The notes under the pieces are model-generated. The model made no database searches and was not told where the DNA came from. It saw nothing but the letters and a program-made list of their open reading frames with translations. The position numbers and the translations under genes are program-made. Of a stretch of DNA of 64,000 bases, positions 2,459 to 62,527 are shown piece after piece. The stretch is from Pecten maximus. Lineage: Eukaryota. The stretch spans positions 30,659,465 to 30,723,464 of the forward strand of contig NC_047022.1 of NCBI RefSeq assembly GCF_902652985.1, in the 5' to 3' direction. How positions within the stretch are numbered: the first letter of the stretch is position 1; each line of letters starts with the position of its first letter.

Positions 2459-3667
2459 TAACAAGAGGCGAATAGGGCCTGAATCACTCACCTGGATACA
2501 TGTAATTCAGTAATTATTGCAAAATAATTTAATTCAAGTTATACCAGGTATTTTAAATATTTTCCTACTTTTGAACTGCCTCTCCCAACAATGGTTCAAA
2601 CCACAGGTGCACAAAATCCTGTTATTCTTGAAAAAGAAACATTTTTATTATTTTCTTTGCCATATTTCCCCTATAAGGCCCCCTTTGTCCCACCGTAAGA
2701 GGGCCATATCCTTCGTTTATACAACAACAGATCTCATTTGGATAATTATTCTCCAAACCATATTTCATCAACATCCATTCAAGTATTCAGGACTAGTAGG
2801 GATTTAAAGGATTTACCTCAATTTCCCCTAATGGGCCCAGCCCTTCCGGCCCCAGGGGAGCCACACCCTCTGTTTATACAATGCTTAATCTCCTTTGCCC
2901 AATAACAACCCAGCCCAAATTTCATCAAAATCCATTCAAGTTCAAGTTTTTTATTAACTTTCAGGTGTTCAGGACTAGTAGCAGTTTAAAGGATTTACCT
3001 CAGTTTCCCCTCTTGGGCCCCGCCCCTCCAGCCCAGGTAAGCCAAATTCTCAGTTTAATCAAAATGTGAACTACAAGGTTGTAGTCACTTGTAGAATTGT
3101 TGTGTATGGTGTAAGAGAGGAAGACGGAGTCCAAGTCGTTGTATCTTGGTTTATTTACGTGTGTAGAACTGCTCAGTCCAGTCCTTGGAAACCGACTACA
3201 TAATATAGTAACATCTAACCTTTTATAGTCCTAAGTCCTAGGTATGAGTATACATGTATATGATTGATTGATTGATACATGATAATATGGAAGACGGCTG
3301 TCATATAGCCTAAGACAATATTAGATAACCATGTACAACATGTACCATTAATATCAGATCAACTACGTCAACAGGTAAACAGAATTGGTGCCAAAGGGCA
3401 AATGTGTTATATAAAAATACAGATCTAGGAATAAAATCTGATATATATTTTTAACTAAATTTTAAAATAATTTATTATATTTCATTCGTCCCTTTGTCAA
3501 AAATGATTTCAAATTAGATATAATTTCGACATCATATAAGTACGTTTGATCTCCTTTGCCCAATAATGCTCCAGCCCAAATTTCATCAAAATCTGTTCAG
3601 GACTAGTAGGGATTTAAAGAAATGTTGACGGACAACAGATGCTGTGCCATAGCATAATGGCAAAAAG
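2459..3667 (+). mobile_element. HINE/pearl-like non-autonomous element, subfamily A (head-array-tail)
   Basis: The head is aacaagaggcgaatagggcctgaatcactcacctgg. Internal units resemble ..gatttacctcaatttcccctaatgggcccagccc.. (2700-3060, 3540-3600). The tail gatttaaagaaatgttgacggacaacag..tgccatagcataatggcaaaaag has the same array-tail junction as the element ending at 25077. Bases 3060-3540 look like an internal insertion. Confidence 0.5.
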
Positions 3668-6600
3668 TTGACGCTGGAAGGACAGACGCCGTTCCACTGG
3701 CAGGGGAGCTAATAGTCAATTCGAAAACAGCCTTACCTGTAATTGATGGTGCAGTCCAAACTTTTAAAGATGTTGTCATATCCACAGTGTCTCCAGTCTT
3801 CTCATTTCCATCATATACTGATGTTTCTTGTAAGTCCTTCGCTTCATCAGTTTTCTTTTTTGTCATTTTTTCCTTGTCTGATTTGACTTTCTCATTAGTA
3901 GTTGCCCATTTCTTCCTTTCTTCATTATGCTTAATCCATTTTTTACTTTTACTTCCATGTTCTTCGTTTACTTTTTTCTTTCTTTCATCCTTGTCTTTAC
4001 TGCTGTCCATAGTATCCTTATTTTTTCTACTAGTTCTGACATGTTCACTGTATCTAGGCTTACTTTTATGGCATGTCCAATCTTTTGTCCCTCTTCTGTC
4101 TATTTCGATCTTTTCCTCTTGTTCTTCATTTCTATCATTTCTAAATCTGTCTTTACTATCATGACTTCTTCCCCTGTACCTTCTCTGCATATCTTGACTT
4201 GGACTTCTGCTGAAACTCCTCTGTCTATCCCGTCTCGTACTTCTTCTAAAACTCCTCTGTCTATCCCGTCTCATACTTCTGCTGAAACTCCTTCGTCTAC
4301 TTCGACTCATACTTCTGCTGAAACTCCTTCGTCTACTTCGACTCCTACTTCTTCTGAAATTCATCGGTCTATCCCGACTCAAACTTCCGCTGAAACTCCT
4401 CTGTCTATCCCGACTCCTACTTCTGCTAAAACTCCTTCGTCTACTTTGACTCAAACTTCTGCTGATACTCCTTCGTCTTCGTCGACTTCTACTTCTGCTG
4501 GAACTCCTTCGTCTTTGTCGACTTCTACTTCTGCTGGAACTCCTTCGTCTTTGTCGACTTCTACTTCTGCTGGAACTTCTTCGTCTTTGTTGACTTCTAT
4601 TTCTGCTGGAACTTCTTCGTGTTCTTTGCTTCAACCTTTGATTGGATTGTTTGTGGCTACCAATGTCAATATGCATACATATTGCTGATTCTGTGTCAAG
4701 ATTATCTAATTTTCTGTATGAAAACAAATCACCTGTAAAACCACAATGGGAAATACGGTCACCCATGCGACCCCCACCAAGACTACCTCTCCCACCCACA
4801 TCGGAACCACCTCTCCCATCCACACCGAGACCACCTCTCCCACCCACACCGGGACCGCCTCTCCCACCCACACCGGGGCCGCCTCTCCCACCCACACCGG
4901 GGCCGCCGCTCCCACCCACACCGGGACCGCCTCTCCCACCCACACCGGAGCCACCTCTCCCAACCACACCGGGGCCACCTCTCCCACCCACACCGGGGCC
5001 ACCTCTCCCACCCACACCGGGACCACCTCTTCCACCCCAGCCACGACCACACCTCTCTCCGACCCACACCGGGGCCACCTCTCCCACCCACACCGGGGCC
5101 ACCTCTCCCACCCACACCGGGGCCACCTCTCCCACCCACATCGGAACCACCTCTCCCACCCACACCGGGACCATCTCTCCCACCCACACCGGGACCACCT
5201 CTTCCACCCCAGCCATGACCACCTCTCCCACCCACACCAGGACCATCCCTAAAACCACCGCCGTAACCGCCCCTATCACCTCTAAAACCTCTACCTTGAC
5301 CATCTCTGCCAACACTACCTTCCCTAAAACTTTGACGAATGGAACTTCTTGAACCACAATTATACTCGTAATTTCCACTACCTCTACTGCCAAAACTTTC
5401 ATTTTGAGAAATAACTACACCACCAAAACCACCTCCAAAATACTGGGTAGTTTCTTCTGATTCAGTTGGCACTGTCTGGAGAGTATTCAAAGCTGCTGGT
5501 TTTGCAACAAATCCATATTCTTGCAATTTGGTAAGTGCACTGCTTGGTGTTGAAACACCTTGATAAGTTGAAGCTGCTTGCTTTGAAACTCCAGAGTTTA
5601 AACCTAGTGATGGTAAAGTGTTTAGTTCTGTTTGCATTGGAGCACCAAAGCAACTTGGAATACTACTCGGAGCTGCTAATGTTGTCAACCCAAAGCCAAA
5701 CCCCTGTGCTGGCACATCGCGTAGTGCAGCATGCAATGGACCTCCAAATGCAGATGTTTGATTTACAGTTAACCCAGAGCCCAAATCTTGTGTTGGTACA
5801 TTGTTTGTTGCTCTTTGAAGTGAAGTGTAAAATGAGAATGATGGACTTGGTAAACTGCTAGAAGTCGCTAGTTCTGAAGCGCCAAACAAGCCTAACCCTT
5901 GTCTTGGTACATCACTATGGGCTGTTTGAAGTGAAGCACCAAATGAAAATCCTTGATTCTGTAAACTGCTAGAAACGGCAGGTTTTGAAGCCGCAAAAGA
6001 GCCAAAACCATTTGTTGGGACATTGTTTGGGGTTGTTTGAAGAGAAGATTGTTGCCTTATCAAACTACTAGAAGCTGCTGTTTTTGAAGCCCCAAAAGAG
6101 CCAAAACCACCATGTGTTGGTACATCATTTTGTGTTGTTTGAAGTGAAGCACCAAATGAAGTCCCAAAATCAAACCCCTGTGTTGGTACATCTTTCAGTT
6201 TTGTTTGCGGTGATGCACCAAATTTTTGACAGACAGCAGCTCCAGATTTTGTTCTCCTCTTCCCTTGTTGGTAAGGAGGAGAGGTAGGCGTATAAAATGG
6301 ACTTGCTGGCTGATAAACAGCAGCAGTAGGTTTGTACATTGGGCTGCTTGGTGAATAGGATGGGCTGGTTGGTGAATAGGATGGGCTGGTTGGTGAATAT
6401 GATGGGCTGGTTGGTGAATATTTTGGAGATGTTGTTGTATATTCTAGTGACATTGGTGATAAGGCTGGGGTGGCTGGTGAATAATGGGGGTCCAGTGATG
6501 ATAAAAAATTGTCGGATAATTTAGAAGTTAGATCATAATCTAAATCAATTTCAATGTCTTCATCCACTATTTGGGAGGCTGTCCTTTTTCTGCTTGCATC

Positions 6601-7676
6601 TGTAGTTTTCCATACATTTTTATTACAATCCCCCGTGTTCAAAAGTTCAGTGGTTGAGTCTACCATCAATTGTTCCTCCTGCTCCTCTGCCTCCTCCTGC
6701 TCCTCCTCCTCAACCTGCTCCTGCTCCTCATCCTCCTCCGCCGCCTCCTCCTCCTGCTCCTCCTCCTCCTCCTCCTCTGCCTCCTCCTCCTCCTCCTCAT
6801 CCGCCTCATATATAATTCTTTTAGCACCACCTTTACCTAGCCCTTTCCCAGATTTCCTTGGTGCTCCCATTTTTGTGGATGACCTAATATCAGCAACAAC
6901 AGCAGATTTCCTTTCAAATTCTTCTTCAAATTCATCACAGGAACTGTCCTCCTCACTTTCATCAGTTTCAATGTGCTCTTTAGCAGGTACAGAAGAACGT
7001 CTGGCAGCTTTGGTTGCAATCTGTTTTCTTGGAATAAATGAAGATTCCCTTTCTGATGTTTCTTCAAATTCATCACAGGAACTGTCCTCCTCACTTTCAT
7101 CAGTTTCACTGTGCTCTTCAGCAGGTACAGAAGAACGTGGATTTCTGGTTAAAACATGTTCTCTTGAAACAGACAAATGCCTTTGTAGCTGACCAAGTTG
7201 TTTTTGTTGCTGTTGTTCCCATTGCAGAGGTTGCTGTTGTTGTTGCTGTTGTTGCTGCTGCTCCTGTTGAAGTTGTAATCGCTGAAGTTGTTGTTGCTGT
7301 TTTTCCCATTGCAGCGGTTGCTGTTGCTGTTGTTGTTGTTGCTGTTGCTCCTGTTGAAGTTGTAGTCGATGAAGTTGTTGTTGTTGATGTTGTTCCCATT
7401 GCAGCAGTTGTTGTTGCTGCTGCTGTTGTTGTTTTTGTTGTTGCTGCTGTTGTTGTTTTGTTGTTGCTGCTGTTGTTGTTGTTGAAGTTGTTGTTGATTA
7501 AGTTGTTGTTGTTCCCATTGCAGCGGTTGCTGTTGCTGTTGCTGCTGCTGTGGAAATTGCTCTTGTTCATATTGATGCAGTTTTGGCTTTAGAATTTGTC
7601 CTGGCTTAGCAATGCCCTGAAAAATATAGATTTTGATAACTTCTGGAGAAGACACATTTGATATGTTCTTTGACAT
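3603..7676 (-). CDS. Large low-complexity mosaic protein (polyQ, histone-tail-like peptides plus acidic tracts, CTD heptads, FG repeats, GGRGGPGV repeats, RS domain, KE-rich tail). Two frame slips inside repeats make it ~1300 aa if repaired.
   Basis: Three overlapping track ORFs on the minus strand (7676-7149, 7176-4783, 5402-3603) form one continuous open region. Repeat periods are multiples of 3 (24-nt octapeptide, 21-nt heptad), which supports protein coding. Frame 0 stays open upstream of 7176 (..[27 protein letters not shown]..). The slips lie at ~7480 (CAG/CAA run) and ~5035 (+4 nt in one octapeptide unit). The stop at 3603 lies in a HINE tail. Confidence 0.55.
4750..5400 (-). repeat. 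Coding 24-nt tandem array encoding about 27 copies of GGRGGPGV (RGG-type), with a frame slip near 5035
   Basis: The plus-strand unit is ctcccacccacaccggggccgcct. One variant unit at 5021-5070 carries +4 nt relative to its paralog at 5196-5240, and this shifts the frame between the 797-aa and 599-aa track ORFs. Confidence 0.6.
6271..6441 (-). other. RNA polymerase II CTD-type heptads (YSPTSPS x3 plus [28 protein letters not shown] variants)
   Basis: Residues ~246-302 of the 797-aa ORF. The 21-nt repeat is visible at 6340-6420 on the plus strand as ggtgaatag(g/t)atgggctg(g/c)ttg. Confidence 0.6.
6817..6882 (-). other. H3(9-17)-like STKMGAPRK fused to an H4(6-17)-identical [12 protein letters not shown] peptide, then RIIYEA and poly-E
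   Basis: Residues 99-123 of the 797-aa [14 protein letters not shown] matches the histone H4 N-terminal tail at 11 of 11 positions. Confidence 0.6.
6982..7032 (-). other. Histone H3 tail-like peptide [17 protein letters not shown] (cf. H3 16-31 PRKQLATKAARKSAPA; K27 position is R)
   Basis: Translation of the 797-aa ORF, residues 49-65. A shorter copy ([10 protein letters not shown]) lies ~35 aa upstream, in a 120-bp tandem duplication that also encodes [12 protein letters not shown]. Confidence 0.6.
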
Positions 7677-12235: not shown

Positions 12236-12418
12236 CAAGATCTGATACAGTAACCTCATTCTTCAATGGAAAGCGGTCATGAATCAACCTCTGTTGGTCT
12301 TGGACAATTCCTTCTATCTTGTAGATTTTGTCCTTTAAATCAGCCACAGTATCCGTACTAGACACCGTCACACAAACAGTCTTACCAGTAAGTGTTTTTA
12401 CTTCGATTGTCGACAAGA
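12236..12418 (-). CDS. Ubiquitin-like domain, N-terminal exon ([60 protein letters not shown])
   Basis: The peptide has the beta-grasp ubiquitin pattern (cf. [58 protein letters not shown]). The acceptor is tttttctcattccag|TC and the donor is G|gtaaat (phase 1). Confidence 0.7.
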
Positions 12419-20952: not shown

Positions 20953-21845
20953 CATGTCCACTACAGTTCAGTAATAAGCCCAATCTAATTAAAATTAGAT
21001 GCTCCTATGGGACTTCCTTAGATCTTGTATTGAAGTGTATCGTAGAGTATTAATGTAGAGGAGCGGAAATTACAAGTCTAATTTTAATTAGATTGGTAAT
21101 AAGCCCATTCATGTCCATAACGGTTCAGAAGTAAGCCTATCCATGTCCATTACAGTTCAGTAATAAGCCCATCCATGTCCACTACAGTTCAGTAATAAGC
21201 CTATCCATGTCCATTACAGTTCAGTAATAAGCTCAGGCCATCCATGTCCATTAGTTCAGTAATAAGCCCACCCGTGTCCACTACAGTTCAGTAATAAGCC
21301 CATCCATGTCCACTACAGTTCAGTAATAAGCCTATACATGTCCACTACAGTTCAGTAATAAGCCCCATGGCCATTACAGTTCGGTAATAAGCTTATCCAT
21401 GTCAATTACAGTTCAGTAATAAGCCTATCCATGTCAATTACAGTACAGTAATAAGCCTATCCATGTCAATTACAGTTCAGTAATAAGCTCAGGCCATTCA
21501 TGTCCACTACAGTTCAGTGATAAGCCCATGGCCATTCATGTCCACTACAGTTCAGTAATAAGCCCATCAATGTCCACTACAGTTCAGTAATAAGCCCATC
21601 CATGTCCATTACAGTTCAGTAATAAGCCCATCCATGTCCATTAGTTCAGTAATAAGCCTATCCATGTCCACTACAGTTCAGTAATGAGTCCATCCATGTC
21701 CACTACAGTTCAGTAATAAGCCCACCCATGTCCACTACAGTTCAGTGATAAGCCCATGGCCATTCATGTCCATTAGTTCAGTAATGAACCCATCGATGTC
21801 CACTACAGTTCAGTAATAAACCCATCGATGTCTATTACAGTTCAT
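20953..21845. repeat. 32-bp tandem array (catgtccactacagttcagtaataagcccatc, ~25 copies), interrupted at 20983-21098 by a ~115-bp palindromic insertion
   Basis: The array is visible by direct repetition. The insertion is flanked by aatctaattaaaattagat / atctaattttaattagatt inverted repeats. Confidence 0.7.
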
Positions 21846-33722: not shown

Positions 33723-34624
33723 CTGCATGATCCAGGATTCCATAATGTAAAAATTTAAGGAGAACGTGTAAAACAATTTTCAGGTAAAAGGTCTCTTAAT
33801 CTCTTTAATATCTTTATCAAAAATAATTACTGTGAATACTGCAACAGAGAGCATGACTAATTCAATTTACTTTGATGCATCCGCTAGGGATTGAAACTGG
33901 CTTTCTAATCTTACGCTCAACTGATCAAGCTCAAGTGAAGTTCTAGATCTCTAGCAAGCAAAACAGTACATTGCAACTCATATTTACCAGGACTACAACA
34001 CAAATAAATGTGACAAACTTCTAGTCATAGTTTGACCATCAAAACTACAAATCAATGTCTCTGTGAAAGGGGTCAAAAGGTAACAATCAGCATAGAGCTA
34101 TTGCCTTAATTTAAAGTTGAAAGTCATAGCTATTATCAGCGACCAAACATGAAGGTCAAAGAATCACTGACTCCTGATACATCATAAAGGTCAATTGAAA
34201 AGGCGTATTGTCTAAAACTTAGTCAAAGCATGAAATTAAACAAGCATGCTGGTATTTCTAAAAGCAATACATGTCCCCTAGCTACCAGCCACCACTAAAA
34301 ACAGTAACAATGACCTTGACCTTGACCCAAAACCCCTGAAACTCGAACTTGATCTGTAGCTACTCATACTTTCACCAACATACCTTGAAGTATGGTTGAG
34401 AAAAGTGCAGAAAACTGAGTAGACGGACTGACTGTTTCATCAGTAGGGGACCAATAAGGCTTGATGGACAGATGCAAGTATTTTTACTAGTCAAACAGGC
34501 AATCAGATAAATTTTATTCACTTTGAGAAGAATCTCAAAAACAAAATTGAATGTTTGAAGCAAAATGTACTTCATCTATTTCTTAAGATGGAGGCAATAA
34601 AACAAATTAACATTGCATACTGAC

Positions 34625-34808
34625 CTCAAAATGACTGTTAACCTCAGCTGACCTTTTGACCCCATGGGTGCTATGGTAGCCAGTGGGAGGGGCTGTGAGA
34701 GTGTAGTCTGTGCTAGTGTAGGGACATTGACGTCCCAATGCCACATCGCACACCAGCAGCAGGCGACAGCCATAGACAGTACTTGGAACTGAGTACTTTA
34801 TGCAAGTG
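34625..34808 (-). CDS. PARP4: PARP4-like exon 11 (STCIKYSVPSTVYGCRLLLVCDVALGRQCPYTSTDYTLTAPPTGYHSTHGVKRSAEVNSHFE), PARP catalytic
   Basis: Matches human PARP4 ..SIKYSHPGETDGTRLLLICDVALGKC..APPGYDSVHGVSQTASVTTDFED. The acceptor is ggttttccag| and the donor is GAG|gtcagt. Confidence 0.8.
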
Positions 34809-36338
34809 CTGGAAAACCAAAATGGTATAAGTTAAAATTTAAAACTAAAATTTGATAAAATTTGAAGTGACAATTGAGATAATGGTTATAGGCCATGGAC
34901 AAACTCTGAGTATTACTAATTTGACATGAACTTAAGGTTCCACAATTTGGACTTATATGTATGAATGCTCATTAAGTATGTACATCTTTGAGTGTACATT
35001 GTAATTGCAGCAAATGTTTTTAAATAGCACTAAAGCCTTTTAAGCTTGAAATGTTGAGTTACTAAATGTATTTTAAAAGATATGATAGCTATGCAGATAA
35101 TCAAAAACTGCTTATCTTGCAAAGAAATAACATATTTGTTTTGGCAATAAGTGATTTGAATACAAATGATACATGTACATACTTTATATCCAAGCTTTAA
35201 TCAAAGTACTGGAAGTACTGTAAACGAACATTATTGTTTAATGCAAAATCAGTAATCTTCTTAGTTTTAAGTTGATAAATTTACTGATATCGGTTTAGGA
35301 ATTAATTGCAAATAATTTGAAATGTTTGCAGCTGTTCTGATTTGATTGTACACATGCATGTTTCTGTAAGGTCCTAATTGAAATTGGAAGTTTGTTGATC
35401 TATCTTGGATCGATGAAAATAAAATATGTCTTCTTTCTTTCGGGAAGGCATCATCAGTTATAATACAGCTAGGACTCTGTGACCTTATTGATGCCAACTT
35501 CTAATATGCACTAAATTTTGGCTAGTTCCATCGTTAGTTTAGCATACATAGTTGTATTTCAACTAAATATGATGAAACACACATAAAGAATTACTGAAAA
35601 CCAAAACCAGAGCTGCTAATCAAGGCCCGAATTAGGAATGTATCCTATTGAAACTGTACTCAAGCATTTATGGTACTTCAAAACAAAAAAAACCTGACTC
35701 CTTTTGTTCAGGAATCATTTGATGTTAATAAATCTGTATATGAGAAGATAAACTTCGGTTATAATTACAGTATAAAGAATAACAACCAGATAAAGACTAT
35801 CTTCATTGAATAATTCAGCAAACAGGAAAAGAAAACTTCAAGATTCATTTTCAACTTCAAACCTGATCACAAAGATTACAGTCCATTCGATGGGATGACA
35901 CATTCCCTATTTATTGTCCTTTTCCAATGTTGATCATCCAATCATACTGAACCACACAATTCAGCAATGTAATTGCACAAATCACACCTTTATGTGGTGA
36001 GAACATTTTTGTGGGTGCTATAAGATTCCATAACTGTATGCAAATTTGTGAAGCATTCCATATCTATGTAATTATATACCGTACGTGTATATATTTACAC
36101 ATATCAAAATTGGAATGACACAGGAGATTTGCAAGTTTAAGTTCACCATCAGTCATGGGAGGTTTATGTAAAATGTTATATTTACCGGGGTAATTAGTAA
36201 TTTTGAGAATATATTTATGAAGCTCTATTCTGTACATTCTACCAGTTCTTAGAGAATGGACACAATTTTATGTTCTCCAATGTCAAAATTAATCATATGT
36301 AAAATATTAGGGGTTTATTCGCCATTCTAGGCCTGATT

Positions 36339-38640
36339 GCCGTCATAGTAAAATTACCAAAATGGACTTGAAATCAATATTTTTAAGAGAATGATCTATG
36401 ACTTGAATATTTCATAAAAATAATGTAATACATCGTTTATTCACTTCATTCAGATCTTCAGACACCACATAATTTGTGAAGTCATATATAGAAATATATG
36501 AACCATTTTGTTATTATTTATAGTTCACACAAGTAAGCACTAGATGTAAGCAGTAAGTATATGTACCGCTATCTACTGGCATGACTTTGAGTACAGTAAA
36601 CTACACTCGCTTTGTGGATATTGACAGGATAACATATATTTACATACTAATTCAATTTTAGAATTGTAACTGAAATCTTGTAACAGCATGGCACAAATAG
36701 TCATCTGAACATGTGTTGTATATTGAAAAATTATTTAAGGTAAATTTTCAGTTTATCAATTCATTGATTACTCCGTGTTTGAAGTATGGTGTAGTGAGAA
36801 TATCAAGTCTTGATCATGACTTGATGAAAATTTTAAATTAACAAATTATTAAAATGAATTTGTTTGAAAAATAACACAAGTTCCACAGCAATATTATATA
36901 GAGAATCAATCGCAATATATCAAAAGTTATAAAACTACAAATAACAATTAACGGCTGAATATCAAATTAAGTGAATATCACAAGTCTTTTTGCATTTGTT
37001 TTTACATAATCCGGATTTCGGTTTTCTGGCTTTAAAAAAAAACGAGAAGTATTTTAATTGCCGTTATAGTTGAATTACCAAAATGGACCTGAAATCAGTA
37101 TTTTTAAAAAAAGAATGATCTATGACTTGAATATTTCATAAAAATAATTTAATACATCGTTTATTCACTTCATTCAGATCTTCAGACACCGCATAATTTG
37201 TGAAGTCATATATAGAAATATATGAACCATTTTTGTTATTGATTTATAGTTCACACAAGTAAGTACGAGATGTAAGCAGTACGTATATGTACCGCTATCT
37301 ACCGGCATGACTGAGTACAGTAGACTACACTCGCTTTGTGGATATTGACAGTATAACATATATTTACATACTAATTCAATTTTAGAATTATAACTGAAAT
37401 CTTGTAACAGCATGGCACAAATAGTCATCTGAACATGTGTTGTATATTGAAAAATTATTTAAGGTAAATTTTCAGTTTATCAATTCATTGATTACTCCGT
37501 GTTTGAAGTATGGTGTAGTGAGAATATCAAGTCTTGATCATGACTTGATGAAAATTTTAAATTAACAAATTATTAAAATGAATTTGTTTGAAAAATAACA
37601 CAAGTTCCACAGCAATATTATATAGAGAATCAATCGCAATATATCAAAAGTTATAAAACTACAAATAACAATTAACGGCTGAATATCAAATTAAGTGAAT
37701 ATCACAAGTCTTTTTGCATTTGTTTTTACATAATCCGGATTTCGGTTTTCTGGCTTTAAAAAAAAACGAGAAGTATTTTAATTGCCGTTATAGTTGAATT
37801 ACCAAAATGGACCTGAAATCAGTATTTTTAAAAAAAAATGATCTATGACTTGAATATTTCATAAAAATAATTTAATACATCGTTTATTCACTTCATTCAG
37901 ATCTTCAGACACCGCATAATTTGTGAAGTCATATATAGAAATATATGAACCATTTTTGTTATTGATTTATAGTTCACACAAGTAAGTACGAGATGTAAGC
38001 AGTACGTATATGTACCGCTATCTACCGGCATGACTGAGTACAGTAGACTACACTCGCTTTGTGGATATTGACAGTATAACATATATTTACATACTAATTC
38101 AATTTTAGAATTATAACTGAAATCTTGTAACAGCATGGCACAAATAGTCATCTGAACATGTGTTGTATATTGAAAAATTATTTAGGTAAATATTTAATTA
38201 ACTCATTTGCGTGACTTTTAGAATTGTAACTGAAATCTTGTAACAGCATGGCACAAATAGTCATCTGAACATGTGTTGTATATATATACCGTAATTGAAA
38301 AATTATTTAGGTAAATATTAACTCATTTGCTTGACTTCAATTTTCAATTTATCAATTCATTGATTACTGTGTTTGAAGTATGGTGTAGCGAGAATTTCAA
38401 GTCTTGATCATGACTTGATGAACGTTCTAAATTAACAAATTATCAAAATGAATTTGTTTGAAAAATAACACAAGTTCCACAGCAATATTATATAGAGAAT
38501 CGATCACACTATTTCAGAAGTTATAAAACTACAAATAATAATTAATGGCTGAATGTGAAATTAAGTGAATATCACAAGTCTTTTTGCATTTGTTTTTAGA
38601 TAATCCGGATTTCCGTTTTCCGTCTTTGAAAAAAAATTAC
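36339..38640. repeat. Macro-tandem repeat, ~723-bp unit x ~3.2 (copies 2 and 3 nearly identical, copy 1 diverged, 3' partial copies degenerate)
   Basis: Units begin at gccgt(c/t)atagt..attaccaaaatggac at 36339, 37060 and 37783. The identical 84-aa track ORFs at 37174-37428 and 37897-38151 are artefacts of this duplication. Confidence 0.8.
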
Positions 38641-40145: not shown

Positions 40146-40240
40146 GCAAAAATTGTAAAAGGATGAAATAGTTTTGGGTGACTTTTGGTCACAAAATTAT
40201 TTGCAAAAATTATTGCTTTATCATTGCAAGTGTGTTAAAA

Positions 40241-43200
40241 GGAAGGTTTACCTGTACTAGGACTTCAAGTATGTTATAAGGAAGGTTTACCTGTACTAGG
40301 ACTTCAAGTATGTTATAAGGAAGGTTTACCTGTACTAGGACTTCATGTATGTTATAAGGAAGGTTTACCTGTACTAGGACTTCAAGTATGTTATAAGGAA
40401 GGTTTACCTGTACTAGGACTTCAAATATGTTATAAGGAAGGTTTACCTGTACTAGGACATAAGTAGGTTATAAGGTAGGTTTACCTGTACTAGGACTTCA
40501 TGTATGTTATAAGGAAGGTTTACCTGTACTAGGACTTCAAGTATGTAATAAGGAAGGTTTACCTGTACAAGGACATAAGTAGGTTATAAGGTAGGTTTAC
40601 CTGTACTAGGACTTCATGTATGTTATAAGGAAGGTTTACCTGTACTAGGACATAAGTAGGTTATAAGGTAGGTTTACCTGTACTAGGACTTCATGTATGT
40701 TATAATGAAGGTTTACCTGTACTAGGACATAAGTATGTTATAAGGAAGGTTTACCTGTACTAGGACTTCAAGTATGTTATAAGGTAGGTTTACCTGTACT
40801 AGGACTTCAAGTATGTTATAAGGAAGGTTTACCTGTACTAGGACATAAGTAGGTTATAAGGTAGGTTTACCTGTACTAGGACTTCATGTATGTTATAATG
40901 AAGGTTTACCTGTACTAGGACTTCATGTATGTTATAAGGAAGGTTTACCTGTACTAGGACATAAGTAGGTTATAAGGAAGGTTTACCTGTACTAGGACAT
41001 AAGTAGGTTATAAGGTAGGTTTACCTGTACTAGGACATAAGTAGGTTATAAGAAAGGTTTACACGTACTAAGATTTAAGTATGTTATAAGGAAGGTTTAC
41101 CTGTACTAGGATTTAAGTATGTTATAAGGAAGGTTTACCTGTACTAGGACATAAGTAGGTTATAAGGAAGGTTTACCTGTACTAGGATTTAAGTATGTTA
41201 TAAGGAAGGTTTACCTGTACTAGGACATAAGTAGGTTATAAGGAAGGTTTACCTGTACTAGGACTTCATGTATGTTATAAGGAAGGTTTACCTGTACTAG
41301 GACATAAGTAGGTTATAATGTAGGTTTACCTGTACTAGGACTTCATGTATGTTATAAGGTAGGTTACCTGTACTAGGATTCAAGTATGTAATAAGGAAGG
41401 TTTACCTGTACTAGGACTTCATGTATGTTATAAGGTAGGTTTACCTGTACTAGGATTTAAGTATGTTATAAGGAAGGTTTACCTGTACTAGGATTTAAGT
41501 ATGTTATAAGGAAGGTTTACCTGTACTAGGACTTCATGTATGTTATAAGGAAGGTTTACCTGTACAGTGTACAAGGACTTCAAGTATGTTATAAGGAAGG
41601 TTTACCTGTACAAGGACTTCAAGTATGTTATAAGGTAGGTTTACCTGTACTAGGATTCATTTATGTTATAAGGAAGGTTTACCTGTACTAGGATTTAAGT
41701 ATGTTATAAGGAAGGTTTACCTGTACTAGGACTTCATGTATGTTATAAGGAAGGTTTACCTGTACAAGGACTTCAAGTATGTTATAAGGAAGGTTTACCT
41801 GTGCAAGGACTTCAAGTATGTTATAAGGAAGGTTTACCTGTACTAGGACATAAGTAGGTTATAAGGAAGGTTTACTTGTACTAGGACTTCAAGTATGTTA
41901 TAAGGAAGGTTTACCTGTACTAGGATTTAAGTATGTTATAAGGAAGGTTTACCTGTACTAGGACATAAGTAGGTTATAAGGAAGGTTTACCTGTACTAGG
42001 ACATAAGTAGGTTATAAGGTAGGTTTACCTGTACTAGGACATAAGTATGTTATAAGGAAGGTTTACATGTACTAGGATTTAAGTATGTTATAAGGAAGGT
42101 TTACCTGTACTAGGACTTCATGTATGTTATAAGGAAGGTTTACCTGTACTAGGACTTTAAGTATGTTATAAGGAAGGTTTACCTGTACTAGGACTTCATG
42201 TATGTTATAAGGAAGGTTTACCTGTACTAGGATTTAAGTATGTTATAAGGAAGGTTTACCTGTACTAGGACATAAGTAGGTTATAAGGAAGGTTTACCTG
42301 TACTAGGACTTCATGTATGTTATAAGGAAGGTTTGCCTGTACTAGGACATAAGTAGGTTATAATGTAGGTTTACCTGTACTAGGACTTCATGTATGTTAT
42401 AAGGTAGGTTTACCTGTACTAGGACTTCAAGTATGTTATAAGGAAGGTTTACCTGTACTAGGATTTAAGTATGTTATAAGGAAGGTTTACCTGTACAAGG
42501 ACTTCAAGTATGTTATAAGGAAGGTTTACCTGTACAAGGACTTCAAGTATGTTATAAGGAAGGTTTACCTGTACTAGGACTTCATGTATGTTATAAGGAA
42601 GGTTTACCTGTACTAGGACTTCATGTATGTTATAAGGAAGGTTTACCTGTACTAGGATTTAAGTATGTTATAAGGAAGGTTTACCTGTACTAGGACATAA
42701 GTAGGTTATAAGGAAGGTTTACCTGTACTAGGACATAAGTAGGTTATAAGGTAGGTTTACCTGTACTAGGACATAAGTATGTTATAAGGTAGGTTTACCT
42801 GTACTAGGACATAAGTAGGTTATAAGGAAGGTTTACCTGTACTAGGACTTCATGTATGTTATAAGGTAGGTTTACCTGTACAAGGACTTCAAGTATGTTA
42901 TAAGGTAGGTTTACCTGTACTAGGACTTCATATATACGGTAGGTTTACCTGTACTAGGACTTCATGTATGTTATAAGGAAGGTTTACCTGTACTAGGATT
43001 CATGTATGTTATAAGGTAGGTTTACCTGTACTAGGACATAAGTGGGTTATAAGGTAGGTTTACCTGTACAAGGACTTCATGTATGTTATAAGGAAGGTTT
43101 ACATGTACTAGGACTTTAAGTATGTTATAAGGAAGGTTTACCTGTACTAGGACATAAGTAGGTTATAAGGTAGGTTTACCTGTACTAGGACATAAGTAGG

Positions 43201-43465
43201 TTATAAGGAAGGTTTACCTGTACTAGGATTTAAGTATGTTATAAGGAAGGTTTACCTGTACTAGGACATAAGTAGGTTATAAGGAAGGTTTACCTGTACT
43301 AGGACTTCAAGTATGTTATAAGGTAGGTTTACCTGTACTAGGACATAAGTATGTTATAAGGTAGGTTGACCTTTACTAGGACATAAGTAGGTTATAAGGA
43401 AGGTTTACCTGTACTAGGATTTAAGTATGTTATAAGGTAGGTTTACCTGTACTAGGACATAAACC
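40241..43465. repeat. Satellite array, 39-bp monomer (ggtttacctgtactaggacttcaagtatgttataaggaa) x ~83, with variant classes
   Basis: Direct tandem repetition. The variable core alternates acttcaagtatg / acttcatgtatg / acataagtaggt / atttaagtatg. Confidence 0.9.
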
Positions 43466-49582: not shown

Positions 49583-50191
49583 CTGAAAAATAGCACATAT
49601 AAAATACTTTAATTAGATTATGAACCTTAGGAACATTGTCTTCAGGCTATGTAACATGTGATATATTTGTAATAACCTATATAATGTGAATTGCGTGAAG
49701 CACTTTTGTAAGGCTAAGCAAGATATGAAACACATTTATTATGGGCAATGGGAAACTTTTTATATTATGCTACATAGAACAGAAGGTTCCATGCACTCAT
49801 TTCTTGTTAGAACTATTTAAGATATTGTCCTCATAATCCAACATTTACCTTCAAAACATTTATTTCTCTGCAAATGTAGTATTACCTGGTACCCCAAATA
49901 TCATCATCTGAGTTGGCATGTAAAATAAATCCTTACACTTTTCACTTTTAAACATGAAATATAAATCTAACTATGTCATTCTCCAAACAGGAACTACGAA
50001 GTATGCTCTCAGCAGAGGTATTTGATCTTGAGTTACCATATTGAAATGATGACAACATTCTTTAATTTCTCCTATGTACAGGTCACAGGAGAAATCTCAC
50101 AATTTTTTCTATATTAAGTGGCTATGATTACCCACTTATATTCAGTAGGCTTTATATGTTTATTAAGATATTACCAGTAGTTACCAATCTA

Positions 50192-53100
50192 GGATACAAG
50201 TGGGGATTTCTGCGGATAAAACTGAGGATTTCTGAGGATAGAAGTGGGGATTTATGAGGATACAACTGGGGATTTTTCAAGGATACAACTGGGGATTTAT
50301 GACGATACAACTGGCGATTTATGAGGAAACAACTGGGGATTTCTGAGGATACAACTGGCAATTTATGACGATACAACCGGGGATTTATGAGGATACAACT
50401 GGCGATTTATGAGGATACAACTGGGGATTTCTAAGGATACAACTGGGGATTTATGAGGATACAATTGGGGATTTCTGAGGATACAACTGGCGATTTATGA
50501 GGATACAACTGGGGATTTATGAGGATACAACTGGCGATTTCTGACGATACAACTGGGGATTTATGAGGATACAACTGGCGATTTCTGACGATACAACTGG
50601 GGATTTATGAGGATACAACTGGAGATTTCTAAGGATACAACTGGCGATTTATGAGGATACAACTGGCGATTTCTAAGGATACAACTGGCAATTTATGACG
50701 ATACAACCGGGGATTTATGAGGATACAACCGGCGATTTATGAGGATACAACTGGGGATTTATGAGGATACAACTGGGGATTTATGAGGATACAACTGGGG
50801 ATTTATGAGGATACAACTGGGGATTTATGAGGATACAACTGGGGATTTCTGAGGATACAACTGGGGATTTCTGAGGATACAACTGGGGATTTATGAGGAT
50901 ACAAGTGGGGATTTATGAGGATACAACTGGCGATTTATGAGGATACAACTGGCGATTTCTAAGGATACAAGTGGGGATTTCTAAGGATACAACTGGGGAT
51001 TTCAAAGGATACAAGTGGGGATTTCTGAGGATACAACTGGCGATTTATGAGGATACAACTGGCGATTTATGAGGATACAACTGGCGATTTATGAGGATAC
51101 AACTGGTGATTTATGAGGATACAACTGGCGATTTCTGAGGATACAACTGGGGATTTATGAGGATACAATTGGCGATTTCTGACGATACAATTGGGGATTT
51201 CTGAGGATACAACTGGCGATTTATGAGGATACAACTGGGGATTTATGAGGATACAACTGGCGATTTCTGACGATACAACTGGGGATTTATGAGGATACAA
51301 CTGGGGATTTATGACGATACAACTGGGGATTTATGAGGATACAACTGGAGATTTATGAGGATACAACTGGGGATTTCTAAGGATACAACTGGGGATTTCT
51401 GAAGATACAATTGGGGATTTCTGAGGATACAACTGGGTGGGGATTTATGAGGATACATGTGGGAATTTCTGAGGATACAATTAGGGATTTATGAGGATAC
51501 AATTGGGGATTTCTGAGGATACAACTGGCGATTTATGAGGATACAACTGGCAATTCATGACGATACAACCGGGGATTTATGACAATACAACTGGCGATTT
51601 ATGACGATACAACTGGGGATTTCTGAGGATACAACTGGCAATTTATGACGATACAACCGGGGATTTATGAGGATACAACTGGCGATTTATGAGGATACAA
51701 CTGGGGATTTCTAAGGATACAACTGGGGATTTATGAGGATACAATTGGCGATTTCTGAGGATACAACTGGCGATTTATGAGGATACAACTGGGGATTTAT
51801 GAGGATACAATTGGGGATTTCTGAGGATACAACTGGCGATTTATGAGGATACAACTGGGGATTTATGAGGATACAACTGGCGATTTCTGACGATACAACT
51901 GGGGATTTATGAGGATACAACTGGCGATTTCTGACGATACAACTGGGGATTTATGAGGATACAACTGGAGATTTCTAAGGATACAACTGGCGATTTATGA
52001 GGATACAACTGGCGATTTCTAAGGATACAACTGGCAATTTATGACGATACAACCGGGGATTTATGAGGATACAACCGGCGATTTATGAGGATACAACTGG
52101 GGATTTATGAGGATACAACTGGGGATTTATGAGGATACAACTGGGGATTTATGAGGATACAACTGGGGATTTCTGAGGATACAACTGGGGATTTATGAGG
52201 ATACAAGTGGGGATTTATGAGGATACAACTGGCGATTTCTAAGGATACAAGTGGGGATTTCTGAGGATACAACTGGGGATTTCAAAGGATACAAGTGGGG
52301 ATTTCTGAGGATACAACTGGGGATTTCTGAGGATACAACTGGGGATTTATGAGGATACAACTGGCGATTTATGAGGATACAACTGGTGATTTATGAGGAT
52401 ACAACTGGGGATTTATGAGGATACAACTGGCGATTTCTGAGGATACAACTGGGGATTTATGAGGATACAATTGGCGATTTCTGACGATACAATTGGCGAT
52501 TTCTGAGGATACAACTGGCGATTTATGAGGATACAACTGGGGATTTATGAGGATACAACTGGCGATTTCTGACGATACAACTGGGGATTTATGAGGATAC
52601 AACTGGGGATTTATGACGATACAACTGGCGATTTATGAGGATACAACTGGAGATTTATGAGGATACAACTGGGGATTTCTAAGGATACAACTGGGGATTT
52701 CTGAAGATACAATTGGGGATTTCTGAGGATACAACTGGGGATTTATGAGGATACATGTGGGAATTTCTGAGGATACAATTAGGGATTTATGAGGATACAA
52801 TTGGGGATTTCTGAGGATACAACTGGGGATTTATGAGGATACAACTGGGGATTTATGAGGATACAACTGGGGATTTCTGAGGATACAACTGGGGATTTAT
52901 GAGGATACAAGTGGGGATTTATGAGGATACAAGTGGGGATTTATGAGGATACAACTGGCGATTTCTAAGGATACAAGTGGGGATTTCAAAGGATACAAGT
53001 GGGGATTTCTGAGGATACAACTGGGGATTTCTGAGGATACAACTGGGGATTTATGAGGATACAACTGGCGATTTATGAGGATACAACTGGTGATTTATGA

Positions 53101-53650
53101 GGATACAACTGGGGATTTATGAGGATACAACTGGCGATTTCTGAGGATACAACTGGGGATTTATGAGGATACAATTGGCGATTTCTGACGATACAATTGG
53201 CGATTTCTGAGGATACAACTGGCGATTTATGAGGATACAACTGGGGATTTATGAGGATACAACTGGCGATTTCTGACGATACAACTGGGGATTTATGAGG
53301 ATACAACTGGGGATTTATGACGATACAACTGGCGATTTATGAGGATACAACTGGAGATTTATGAGGATACAACTGGGGATTTCTAAGGATACAACTGGGG
53401 ATTTCTGAAGATACAATTGGGGATTTCTGAGGATACAACTGGGGATTTATGAGGATACATGTGGGAATTTCTGAGGATACAATTAGGGATTTATGAGGAT
53501 ACAATTGGGGATTTCTGAGGATACATGTGGGAATTTCTGAGGATAGAAGTGTGAATTTCTGAGGATACATGTGGGAATTTCTGAGGATACAATTAGGGAT
53601 TTATGAGGATACAAGTGGGAGTTTCTGAAGGTACAAGTGGAGATTTCTGA
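50192..53650. repeat. Satellite array, 22-bp monomer (gaggatacaactggggatttat; variants ctggcgatttctgac, ttggggatttctgag, gtggggatttatgag) x ~157
   Basis: Direct tandem repetition. The 66-nt (3-monomer) periodicity gives many minus-strand track ORFs of 69-80 aa (YPHKSPVVSSEIASCILINPQL..), which are artefacts. Confidence 0.9.
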
Positions 53651-61240: not shown

Positions 61241-62527
61241 ATGTCGTCGGACAGCGATTCCGATAACGAGGAATTCCAGATAAAGCGTTACATGAACACA
61301 GATTTCGGACAGAGCATAAAACAGGCAAAAACTCTCCAAAATCACTACAGCGGGATCAAACCGCAGCCTGGATTTTATGAACTTTGCGACCGGAAGCACT
61401 GGTCATTGGGAACGAAATCGTACTGCGGCAAACATTGGGATGTTGAAGGAGTGACCCCTCTGGCTCGGTCAACTCGACGCTTGACCCTTCATAATGTCAA
61501 CACAGAGGTCGACAAAGAGAAAGCCAGGAAAATTCAAAAAGAGGATTCCGAGAAAAGAGAAGCAAGTCAAACTCTGTGTCCCATGAACAAAGAATTTAAC
61601 GATACCGTACACTTCAGCGAGAAAAAGATGAGAGCAGAAGCAGCGTCTATGAGAAACTACCAGGCAAAGATCAAGGATGACATGCAACTTCAGTTACTGA
61701 ATTTTACACATGCTGGTTTAGTCGCTTTGGAAACGGAAGAAGAGCGTTTTAATCAGATCAAGTTGCTACGAGCAATGCTGAATAACGTTAACAAGTCTGC
61801 AAGTATTGAAGATTTAGTTGATGCAATGTCTGAAACGAACGAGAAGAGGAATCACATCAACAGAGACCTAGAGGAAGCGTTCGGAAGGTTGGTCGAGGAA
61901 GAAAAGGACTTGGATGATGATTACAGGCAAGCCATGATGGAAATGCTTGACGAATCTCTTATAAGGGTTATCTTGAATATGGATAGGGATGTAACGAAGA
62001 AGATGTTTGAGGATGAAAAGAAGGAACGAGTGATGGAACAGAATAATTTGCTCAAAGACAAGAAGAGAGCCAAAGCAATGAAAAACTTTGAGGAGGTCCT
62101 GGATGATATGAGACGAATATATCAGCAAGTCTTAGATGAGGAAGAAAGAATCGAAGAAAGCTACAAAGATAAAGTAAGGGAGGTAAAAACTAGGATGCAG
62201 GAAGAACTAGTTAGAAAATTCGCCGCAAAATGGGCCGAGAAGGCGTGCGCTGATGAAAAAACGCGCCGTATTCAAGAATTCGAAAACCCTGGTACCAAGA
62301 AAAATGTGGCCTGGGAGTCAATGAAGAATCTGATGAGTAGGGTACAACGACAGATGATTTTGTCCAAGTTTGACGGGAAATGGATTGATTTCAAAGAAGA
62401 GGCCAAAAAGGAGAAAGCAAAACGGCACGAAACGCTAGTTCCGGAAACTGAACAGGACAAGAAGATCAGGCAAATTAGAACACGATCACGGCGGCCATCT
62501 TGTGTTGTGAGAGGCGATGATGATTAG
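61241..62527 (+). CDS. Intronless ORF, 428 aa from the first ATG: acidic Ser-rich N-terminus (SSDSDSDNEE), tandem C-x3-HW / C-x2-HW motif, long K/E/R-rich predicted coiled-coil; family not recognised
   Basis: The track ORF 61220-62527 begins with an alternative start codon; the first ATG is at 61241. It is a single uninterrupted frame in a segment with higher GC and no tandem repeats. A 1.1-kb AT-rich downstream segment contains ATTAAA at ~62924 and AATAAA at ~63676. Confidence 0.5.
   Translation: MSSDSDSDNEEFQIKRYMNTDFGQSIKQAKTLQNHYSGIKPQPGFYELCDRKHWSLGTKSYCGKHWDVEGVTPLARSTRRLTLHNVNTEVDKEKARKIQKEDSEKREASQTLCPMNKEFNDTVHFSEKKMRAEAASMRNYQAKIKDDMQLQLLNFTHAGLVALETEEERFNQIKLLRAMLNNVNKSASIEDLVDAMSETNEKRNHINRDLEEAFGRLVEEEKDLDDDYRQAMMEMLDESLIRVILNMDRDVTKKMFEDEKKERVMEQNNLLKDKKRAKAMKNFEEVLDDMRRIYQQVLDEEERIEESYKDKVREVKTRMQEELVRKFAAKWAEKACADEKTRRIQEFENPGTKKNVAWESMKNLMSRVQRQMILSKFDGKWIDFKEEAKKEKAKRHETLVPETEQDKKIRQIRTRSRRPSCVVRGDDD

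Follow-up and report, generated by a model that had tools for sequence, protein, structure and literature searches.

Histone H3 and H4 tail look-alikes lie within a putative mosaic tail of a scallop PARP4-like gene

A 64,000-nt stretch of the scallop Pecten maximus genome (NC_047022.1, assembly GCF_902652985.1, forward-strand positions 30,659,465 to 30,723,464), hereafter the window, encodes a cluster of short peptides that closely resemble the N-terminal tails of histones H3 and H4. The peptides are all read from the minus strand in one frame, as seen in the translation of window positions 6400-7600, and lie within a single exon of about 4 kb (7616-3603, minus strand; the giant exon), which appears, from its surroundings, to encode the tail of a PARP4-like protein. 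With moderate confidence, we regard them as one module of a disordered C-terminal mosaic tail that would act as an array of baits. A first-pass annotation had found the peptides but missed the strand, the gene and the neighboring look-alikes. The histone-like features are as follows.

6982-7032, minus strand: H3(16-31) look-alike, 17 residues, with L20I, K27R and one added residue ahead of PA
6853-6885, minus strand: weak H3(8-18) look-alike, 11 residues, 7/11 match, adjoining the H4 look-alike
6817-6852, minus strand: H4 look-alike, 12 residues, the last 11 of which (6817-6849) equal H4 7-17 (11/11)
6802-6822, minus strand: KRIIYEA, possibly H4 44-52 (KRISGLIYE) minus SGL

Alignment to H3 bears out the resemblance reported by the first-pass annotation: the peptide at 6982-7032 equals H3 16-28 at 11 of 13 positions, differing by one L/I change (L20I) and by K27R. 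The claimed identity to the H4 tail over 11 residues also stands, as an exact copy of H4 7-17. RIIYEA, formerly listed as H4-like, can be read together with the preceding lysine as H4 44-52 without SGL, a by-eye comparison that is weak alone. STKMGAPRK does resemble H3, but in register 10-18 rather than 9-17 and at only 6 of 9 positions; the match is weak because the RSS at its start may be simply the start of a third repeat unit. Serine replaces the H3 K9 equivalent and arginine the K27 equivalent; the kept lysines are K18 and K23 of H3 and K8, K12 and K16 of H4, with the lysine of PRK at the H4 K5 position. Since neither K9 nor K27 is retained, and with the acetyl-lysine positions kept, the emphasis once placed on PRC2 and K27 has no special support.

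Shuffles, a six-frame k-mer control and a PDB search all speak against chance as the source of the histone-like matches. The local alignment scores are 58 (H3) and 63 (H4), against shuffle means of 28 ± 5 and 25 ± 4; the observed score was reached by 1 of 5000 shuffles for H3 and by none of 5000 for H4, and the calculated chance of the exact H4 11-mer anywhere in the exon, given the exon's own composition, is about 1e-9. This window and nine other PARP4 loci were scanned in six frames for 6-mers from histone tails and from the C-terminal domain (CTD) of RNA polymerase II: histone-tail 6-mers were limited to seven clustered here and one stray H2B 6-mer at another locus (L009), and all CTD 6-mers fell inside the giant exon. 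When the 134-residue segment was compared by phmmer with 177,635 PDB sequences, the best 60 matches were mostly histone H3, each weak (E 0.2-1.7). The peptides are not part of a histone gene: no Pfam histone match falls on the segment, only tail residues align to H3 and H4, and the AlphaFold2 (AF2) model around the look-alikes contains no histone fold. Both the H4 identity and the H3 near-identity are tail motifs present within a non-histone protein.

The peptides are interleaved with a tandem duplication and bordered by acidic sequence.

7033-7138, minus strand: duplication copy 1, 106 nt, RSSVPA plus a 20-residue acidic block
6895-7000, minus strand: duplication copy 2, 106 nt, 90% identical to copy 1
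6670-6801, minus strand: polyglutamate (polyE)/acidic run of about 44 residues

The duplication is in frame with a measured period of 138 nt, not the 120 bp first proposed, and its repeated core is RSSVPA with the acidic block. A second H3-like copy had been ascribed to it; RSSVPA is indeed common to both copies, but the H3-like 11-residue core lies between them and is not duplicated. The acidic surroundings are as described earlier and include the polyE run. In an AF2 single-sequence model of 260 residues around the look-alikes, the mean predicted local distance difference test score (pLDDT) is 54 and the polyE helix, the sole helix predicted, is the only confident element, a result consistent with disorder. 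A plus-strand S-rich open reading frame (ORF) at 6554-7192 is the antisense shadow of the acidic sense sequence.

After two single-base corrections, the giant exon reads as one open frame of 1,337 codons with its stop codon at 3603-3605. The modules follow in the order polyQ, H3/H4 look-alikes, polyE, a unique stretch of about 75 residues, CTD heptads, FG repeats, RGG repeats, RS repeats and a K/E tail.

7201-7616, minus strand: exon start and polyQ repeats; acceptor tttttcag/GGC at 7616; unit Q8-PLQWE-Q4.., 87 nt
6265-6429, minus strand: RNA polymerase II CTD heptads; YSPTSPS three times, then degenerate; amplified as 21-nt units
5419-6225, minus strand: FG repeats, about 270 residues; non-repetitive DNA, no in-frame stop
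4761-5295, minus strand: RGG repeats; GGRGGPGV, 24-nt unit, about 20 copies
4203-4620, minus strand: RS repeats; 12-residue unit, 36 nt, 11.6 copies
3603-4202, minus strand: K/E-rich tail, ending at the stop codon
3728-3743 (near 3737), minus strand: strong alternative donor CAG/GTAAGG, about 130 nt before the stop of the exon

The CTD part matches PF05001 at 25.4 bits over four stretches (cutoff 20.3) and RPB1 in PDB at E=1e-58. The Rpb1 catalytic core is not attached: the heptads sit between the unique acidic region and the FG repeats of the same exon. The H3/H4 peptides and the CTD, FG, RGG and RS modules are look-alikes of the unstructured tails of abundant nuclear proteins, with polyQ, polyE and K/E-rich sequence as spacers between them. 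The alternative donor means that the gene may run on to further exons past the window start, encoding e.g. the MVP-binding domain.

Several features indicate that the DNA of the giant exon is coding or was so very recently. Two stop-to-stop frames, of 904 codons (7497-4786) and 603 codons (5414-3606), overlap in the RGG array. Over the non-repetitive 1.26 kb between 6660 and 5401 there is no in-frame stop, versus 10-44 in the five other frames, and the open run of 420 codons compares with a longest run of 214 among 2000 shuffles. In the segments outside the polyQ and polyE runs, GC content at third codon positions (GC3) is 0.20-0.33, below that at the first and second (GC1 and GC2). The main tandem-repeat periods (87, 138, 21, 24 and 36) are all multiples of three; most modules have grown in place through in-frame tandem duplication.

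Each of the two corrections concerns a single nucleotide. Break 1 falls in an A-run within the CAA/CAG repeats (7446-7469), where adding one A restores the frame; break 2, of opposite sign, falls in GAGAGAGG, a GA-run within the RGG array (5047-5064), where dropping one base restores it. The units flanking each break encode the same peptide (QQPLQWE.. at break 1, GGRGGPGV at break 2), and no GT..AG intron of workable size is available at either site. We favor assembly error over very recent mutation because both contexts are error-prone repeats and the frame is otherwise spotless.

Upstream of the giant exon on the same strand lie the exons of a PARP4-like core and of a ubiquitin-like domain.

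14445-59220, minus strand: PARP4-like core gene; start exon, BRCT, PARP regulatory and catalytic, VIT, VWA and conserved post-VWA exons
12236-12418, minus strand: ubiquitin-like exon 1; LSTIEVKTLTGKT..QQRLI..; internal, phase-1 acceptor, without a start codon
8596-8690, minus strand: ubiquitin-like exon 2; ..LQNNPIFLVMRLRGG VPSTIQ..; phase-0 donor, in-frame join to the giant exon at consensus splice sites

Domain and protein matches indicate that most of the window is one PARP4-like gene. The PARP catalytic exon (34610-34831) matches PF00644 at 29.4 bits (cutoff 26.7); after the catalytic domain come exons matching VIT (45.6 bits) and VWA_3 (29.2 bits), and the best database matches are PARP4 proteins (E=1e-155). 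A Pecten maximus protein annotated as "PARP4-like, partial" (P0173) maps to 12 exons from 59220 to 34625, three of them at 100%, with aligned blocks of 79-100% identity. The BRCT exon of the window has no Pfam match by itself; the nearly identical P0173 has precomputed matches to PF00533 and PF16589. Spliced at consensus sites, the two ubiquitin-like exons match PF00240 at 57.3 bits (cutoff 25.4), and the domain ends in LVMRLRGG-V. We infer, tentatively, that the giant exon is translated in the animal and physically linked to the PARP4 reading frame.

Other PARP4 loci offer parallels. A eukaryotic metagenome contig (L002, 4202-9811) encodes BRCT-PARP, VIT-VWA and a ubiquitin ending in LRLRGG-P, followed, in frame after a GTAAGT..CAG intron, by FG repeats, polyP, polyQ and K-rich sequence; by its domain order the architecture is the same as that of the scallop locus. 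The likeness is architectural only, with no significant BLASTP similarity between the Pecten and L002 tails. In the oyster Saccostrea cucullata, two conserved proteins are represented in the tail of a PARP4-like protein (P0163): synaptobrevin, by a SNARE piece scoring 39.4 bits (cutoff 26.4), and actin, by an N-terminal/D-loop piece scoring 35.3 bits (cutoff 27). In four further, unannotated assemblies (L004-L007), a fragment corresponding to actin residues ~6-72 lies on the same strand as the PARP4 VIT-VWA, a few kilobases downstream, and is split exactly at the codon 41/42 intron position of actin.

Saccostrea cucullata locus L001, 16007-16108 and 16545-16715: synaptobrevin and actin pieces, each in its own small exon (Pfam)
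L004, 16085-16186 and 17705-17794: actin fragment exons
L005, 14177-14278 and 15459-15551: actin fragment exons
L006, 18224-18331 and 20143-20238: actin fragment exons
L007, 14236-14364 and 15544-15639: actin fragment exons
L009 (fifth unannotated assembly), 21651-21785: ORF matching Actin at the end of the locus

Among L004-L007, the proportion of synonymous sites that differ in the actin fragment (pS) is 0.6-0.9 and that of nonsynonymous sites (pN) 0.09-0.19 (pN/pS 0.12-0.27): the captured actin fragments are old and kept by purifying selection. The scallop window has no actin-like or synaptobrevin-like piece, and a panel of 18 conserved proteins recovered ubiquitin alone from it. An imitation of the ribosomal P-stalk tail, considered for oyster and ark-clam tails (EESEEEDVDMAFALFD, EDEDLEFGLFGD), was rejected: a PDB search gave EF-hand proteins, and L005 lacks the FGLFD exon that should follow SDDDMG.

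Histone mimicry by short motifs is exemplified by the ARSK tail of influenza NS1 and by ARKT of G9a. To our knowledge, known histone mimics span 4-6 residues and are centered on a methyl-lysine. The scallop peptides resemble them in that a near-identical or identical stretch of a histone tail is embedded in a non-histone protein; they differ in being 11-17 residues long, in copying both H3 and H4, in lacking K9 and K27, and in standing beside other look-alikes. The tail has a counterpart in mammals, where the largest PARP4 exon (human exon 30) encodes about 360 disordered residues with a nonsynonymous-to-synonymous rate ratio (dN/dS) of 1.75; a role at the interface of host and pathogen was proposed for it (Daugherty et al., 2014; PMC4038475). 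The vertebrate exon is the largest in the gene, follows VWA, is predicted to be disordered and is unalignable between lineages; the scallop exon has the same position in a PARP4-like gene and likewise appears disordered. The mammalian exon has no reported resemblance to other proteins, whereas the scallop exon, at about 1,337 residues and placed after a ubiquitin-like domain, carries recognizable copies of histone, CTD, FG, RGG and RS tails.

PARP4-like proteins with appended 14-3-3, actin or ubiquitin-related domains have been described in amoebae, Capsaspora, Salpingoeca, lancelet and sea urchin, and these additions were interpreted as connecting the proteins to the cytoskeleton (Perina et al., 2014; PMC4245714). 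In those proteins, as at the loci with actin, synaptobrevin or ubiquitin pieces described here, part of a highly conserved host protein comes after a PARP4-type core; the former are domain-level annotations, whereas the scallop tail arrays short unstructured tails of nuclear proteins within one exon. A further analogy is with the integrated decoys of plant NLR receptors and the protease "tripwires" NLRP1 and CARD8 (a class discussed in PMC11781737), in which a defense protein carries a copy of the host component that a pathogen targets, so that an attack on the copy is sensed or absorbed; by comparison, an immune role of PARP4 is hypothetical, being drawn from evolutionary data, and the scallop pieces are disordered tails rather than folded domains. 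Cytoplasmic condensates built by MX2 reportedly mimic nuclear pores (2023-24 preprint, bioRxiv 10.1101/2023.06.22.545931). The likeness lies in FG-rich cytoplasmic material serving as a fake nuclear entry site for nuclear-replicating viruses, but MX2 recruits genuine FG nucleoporins, whereas the scallop FG repeats are encoded in the PARP4 tail itself and their link to viruses is hypothetical. Among vault proteins, TEP1 has a TIR-like NADase domain, and bacterial members of this domain family act in antiphage defense (2026 preprint). Our literature search found no paper in which a PARP4 tail was described as holding look-alikes of histone, CTD, FG, RGG or RS sequences. Mimicry of histones is known, as are pieces of host proteins in PARP4 tails; the array of nuclear tail look-alikes in a PARP4 tail appears to be new.

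Molecular mimicry is the most likely function of the tail, to judge from three features: PARP4 tails repeatedly hold pieces of conserved host proteins, with selection demonstrated for actin; every scallop piece copies an unstructured tail on which other proteins dock; and the position of the tail matches that of the fast-evolving disordered exon of mammalian PARP4. Each module would be a bait, presenting a copied conserved host tail to its usual binding partners and modifying enzymes. The targets might be pathogen effectors and proteases or, alternatively, host enzymes, readers and transport receptors; among host factors, transport receptors, acetyltransferases, CTD and SR kinases and protein arginine methyltransferases (PRMTs) are candidates. 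The bait may draw its targets to PARP4 or the vault, where they could be sequestered or ADP-ribosylated; alternatively, cutting of the tether could change the location of PARP4. Both the bait function and its targets are putative.

This proposal could be widened: PARP4 tails may constitute a general animal system of integrated baits, with the scallop set forming a "fake nucleus" that lures attackers to the vault. The disordered vault-PARP linker would then capture and retain, lineage by lineage, copies of the most conserved host proteins with which pathogens cannot avoid contact (actin, synaptobrevin, ubiquitin and 14-3-3 elsewhere; H3 and H4 tails, the Pol II CTD, FG, RGG and RS in the scallop), and the lured parties might be effectors, proteases and incoming nuclear-replicating viruses. 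We offer this generalization tentatively and consider it rather doubtful.

The first-pass annotation had already suggested a mimic or decoy of histone tails. That idea is partly supported, in that the look-alikes are real, exceed chance and are set in a longer mosaic of copied tails; the gene context renders such a role more plausible than the peptides alone could. Against it stand a frame break upstream, as assembled, and an empty homolog search, and several observations weigh against a translated bait tail on PARP4. In the assembly, the exon start (frame of 7616) is out of frame with the histone-like segment, and a second break interrupts the RGG array; should both breaks prove genuine, translation of the main ORF would not yield the segment. 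Ubiquitin-like exon 1 has a phase-1 acceptor and the three preceding conserved exons end in phase 0; these phases do not fit, which leaves at least one small linking exon missing between the VWA side and the ubiquitin-like exon. The MVP-binding domain was not found inside the window, nor was any conserved exon downstream of the giant exon there, in a check for the MVP-binding (MINT) domain made without a reference MINT sequence and with the gene possibly extending beyond the window start. All codon differences between the 138-nt duplication copies are nonsynonymous, and purifying selection is not visible there. Finally, a phmmer search of the 260-residue stretch comprising the H3/H4 look-alikes, polyE and unique sequence against 1.84 billion representative proteins returned no homolog, and the 134-residue segment has no relatives in viral or metagenome contigs. 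The sole match to the 260-residue stretch (P0134) was discarded as a spurious zinc finger. Three window ORFs looked up by exact sequence had no match, and a search with a 659-residue query was dominated by Rpb1 CTD matches and was uninformative on orthologs. The absence of a homolog is weak evidence because the word-indexed library apparently lacks long proteins, so that a full-length model may be missing from it: the Rpb1 and PARP4 matches listed were all under about 1,150 residues, and the full-length proteins have 1,700-1,970.

Several of the same facts would suit an exon assembled without selection, a fast-evolving low-complexity sequence that gathers fragments by slippage, unequal crossing-over and capture, leaving the histone-like peptides as functionless leftovers. 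Young tandem arrays of 85-96% identity dominate the exon, the 138-nt copies differ only nonsynonymously, no ortholog was found, and tails past the conserved PARP4 core show no similarity between taxa. Such a patchwork is nevertheless unlikely: the exact H4 11-mer and the 11/13 H3 match persist even though third positions match the local AT-rich composition (GC3 0.21), the frame is clean across 1.26 kb of non-repetitive DNA, the look-alikes all belong to one functional class of tails rather than to random gene pieces, and purifying selection clearly acts on the actin fragments captured in related tails. It is distinctly unlikely that the exon is instead dead or dying, with both frameshifts real, translation of the tail lost in this lineage or haplotype and the look-alikes mere relics. 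Two 1-nt breaks within 4 kb would fit this account, as would the lack of the exact ORFs in the contig collection and of any protein from the giant exon in either protein library. Yet the breaks occur in the most error-prone contexts, the A-run in the CAA/CAG repeats and the GA-run in the 24-nt array; the same peptide is encoded on either side of each, implying that the intended frame is continuous; the 904 and 603 consecutive codons on either side are free of stops; and the library matches listed suggest a length limit under which a full-length model could be invisible.

The tail might also work as a host-directed address label, steering PARP4 or vaults to the nucleus or nuclear pore or, in a variant, offering sites such as PRKS for Ser-ADP-ribosylation or acetylation in cis. 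Karyopherins recognize H3 and H4 tails, like RGG and RS regions, as import signals, and FG repeats are docking sites for transport receptors. The kept modules are indeed basic patches resembling nuclear localization signals (NLS) together with FG, RGG and RS; L002 repeats the FG module after a ubiquitin domain; and the acetylatable lysines are kept, unlike K9 and K27. An ordinary NLS, however, needs neither 11/11 identity to H4 nor Pol II heptads, and the cytoplasmic actin and synaptobrevin copied by other PARP4 tails are a poor fit to a nuclear address, which makes this account quite improbable. Very improbable, in our estimate, is a separate gene in which the ubiquitin-like exons and the giant exon form a ubiquitin fusion with an unseen short first exon and cleavage after RLRGG. 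Deubiquitinases cleave ubiquitin fusions such as UBA52 and RPS27A and can cut between RLRGG and a valine, and valine directly follows RLRGG here; the last recognized PARP4 exon, moreover, ends in phase 0 and the acceptor of ubiquitin-like exon 1 is in phase 1. That exon, on the other hand, has no start codon and has a good internal acceptor, PARP4 VIT-VWA, ubiquitin and FG tail are joined in frame in L002, and ubiquitin-related domains have been recorded in PARP4-like proteins (PMC4245714).

What vaults and PARP4 do has been a puzzle since the 1980s, with positive selection on the disordered exon as the only strong clue. The copied tails, together with actin, synaptobrevin and ubiquitin in relatives, indicate what a PARP4 tail might imitate. 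If the tail is indeed an array of baits, the integrated-decoy principle of plant NLRs and mammalian NLRP1/CARD8 would extend to a new enzyme family and to disordered motifs, with a bearing on diseases of farmed bivalves such as infections by herpes-like virus or Vibrio; if integrated baits prove general among PARP4 tails, the vault would gain a concrete role as an effector trap or sensor. Should the bait interpretation fail, the locus would still clearly exemplify how host tail sequences can be captured within an exon and amplified in frame.

Some features of the window lie outside the giant exon. Downstream of it, a minus-strand ORF of 252 residues (728-1486) has a weak DDE_Tnp_4 match and is probably a remnant of a PIF/Harbinger-type transposase. 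Upstream of the PARP4 start, an intron-less plus-strand K/E-rich ORF (61241-62527, 428 residues) has no Pfam match, and its exact look-up was empty. Satellites with strong GC skew occupy two stretches inside PARP4 introns (40227-43458 and 50191-53650), one with a unit of 38/77 nt (about 84 copies) and one with a unit of 22 nt (about 157 copies). Intronic tandem copies about 723 bp apart at 36400-38300 contain identical open frames of 94 residues (37177-37458 and 37900-38181). Beyond the window, proteins of Mytilus galloprovincialis (P0111) and M. californianus (P0114) combine MATH/TRAF-like domains with Rpb1 CTD heptads, and are another bivalve family with Pol II CTD look-alikes.

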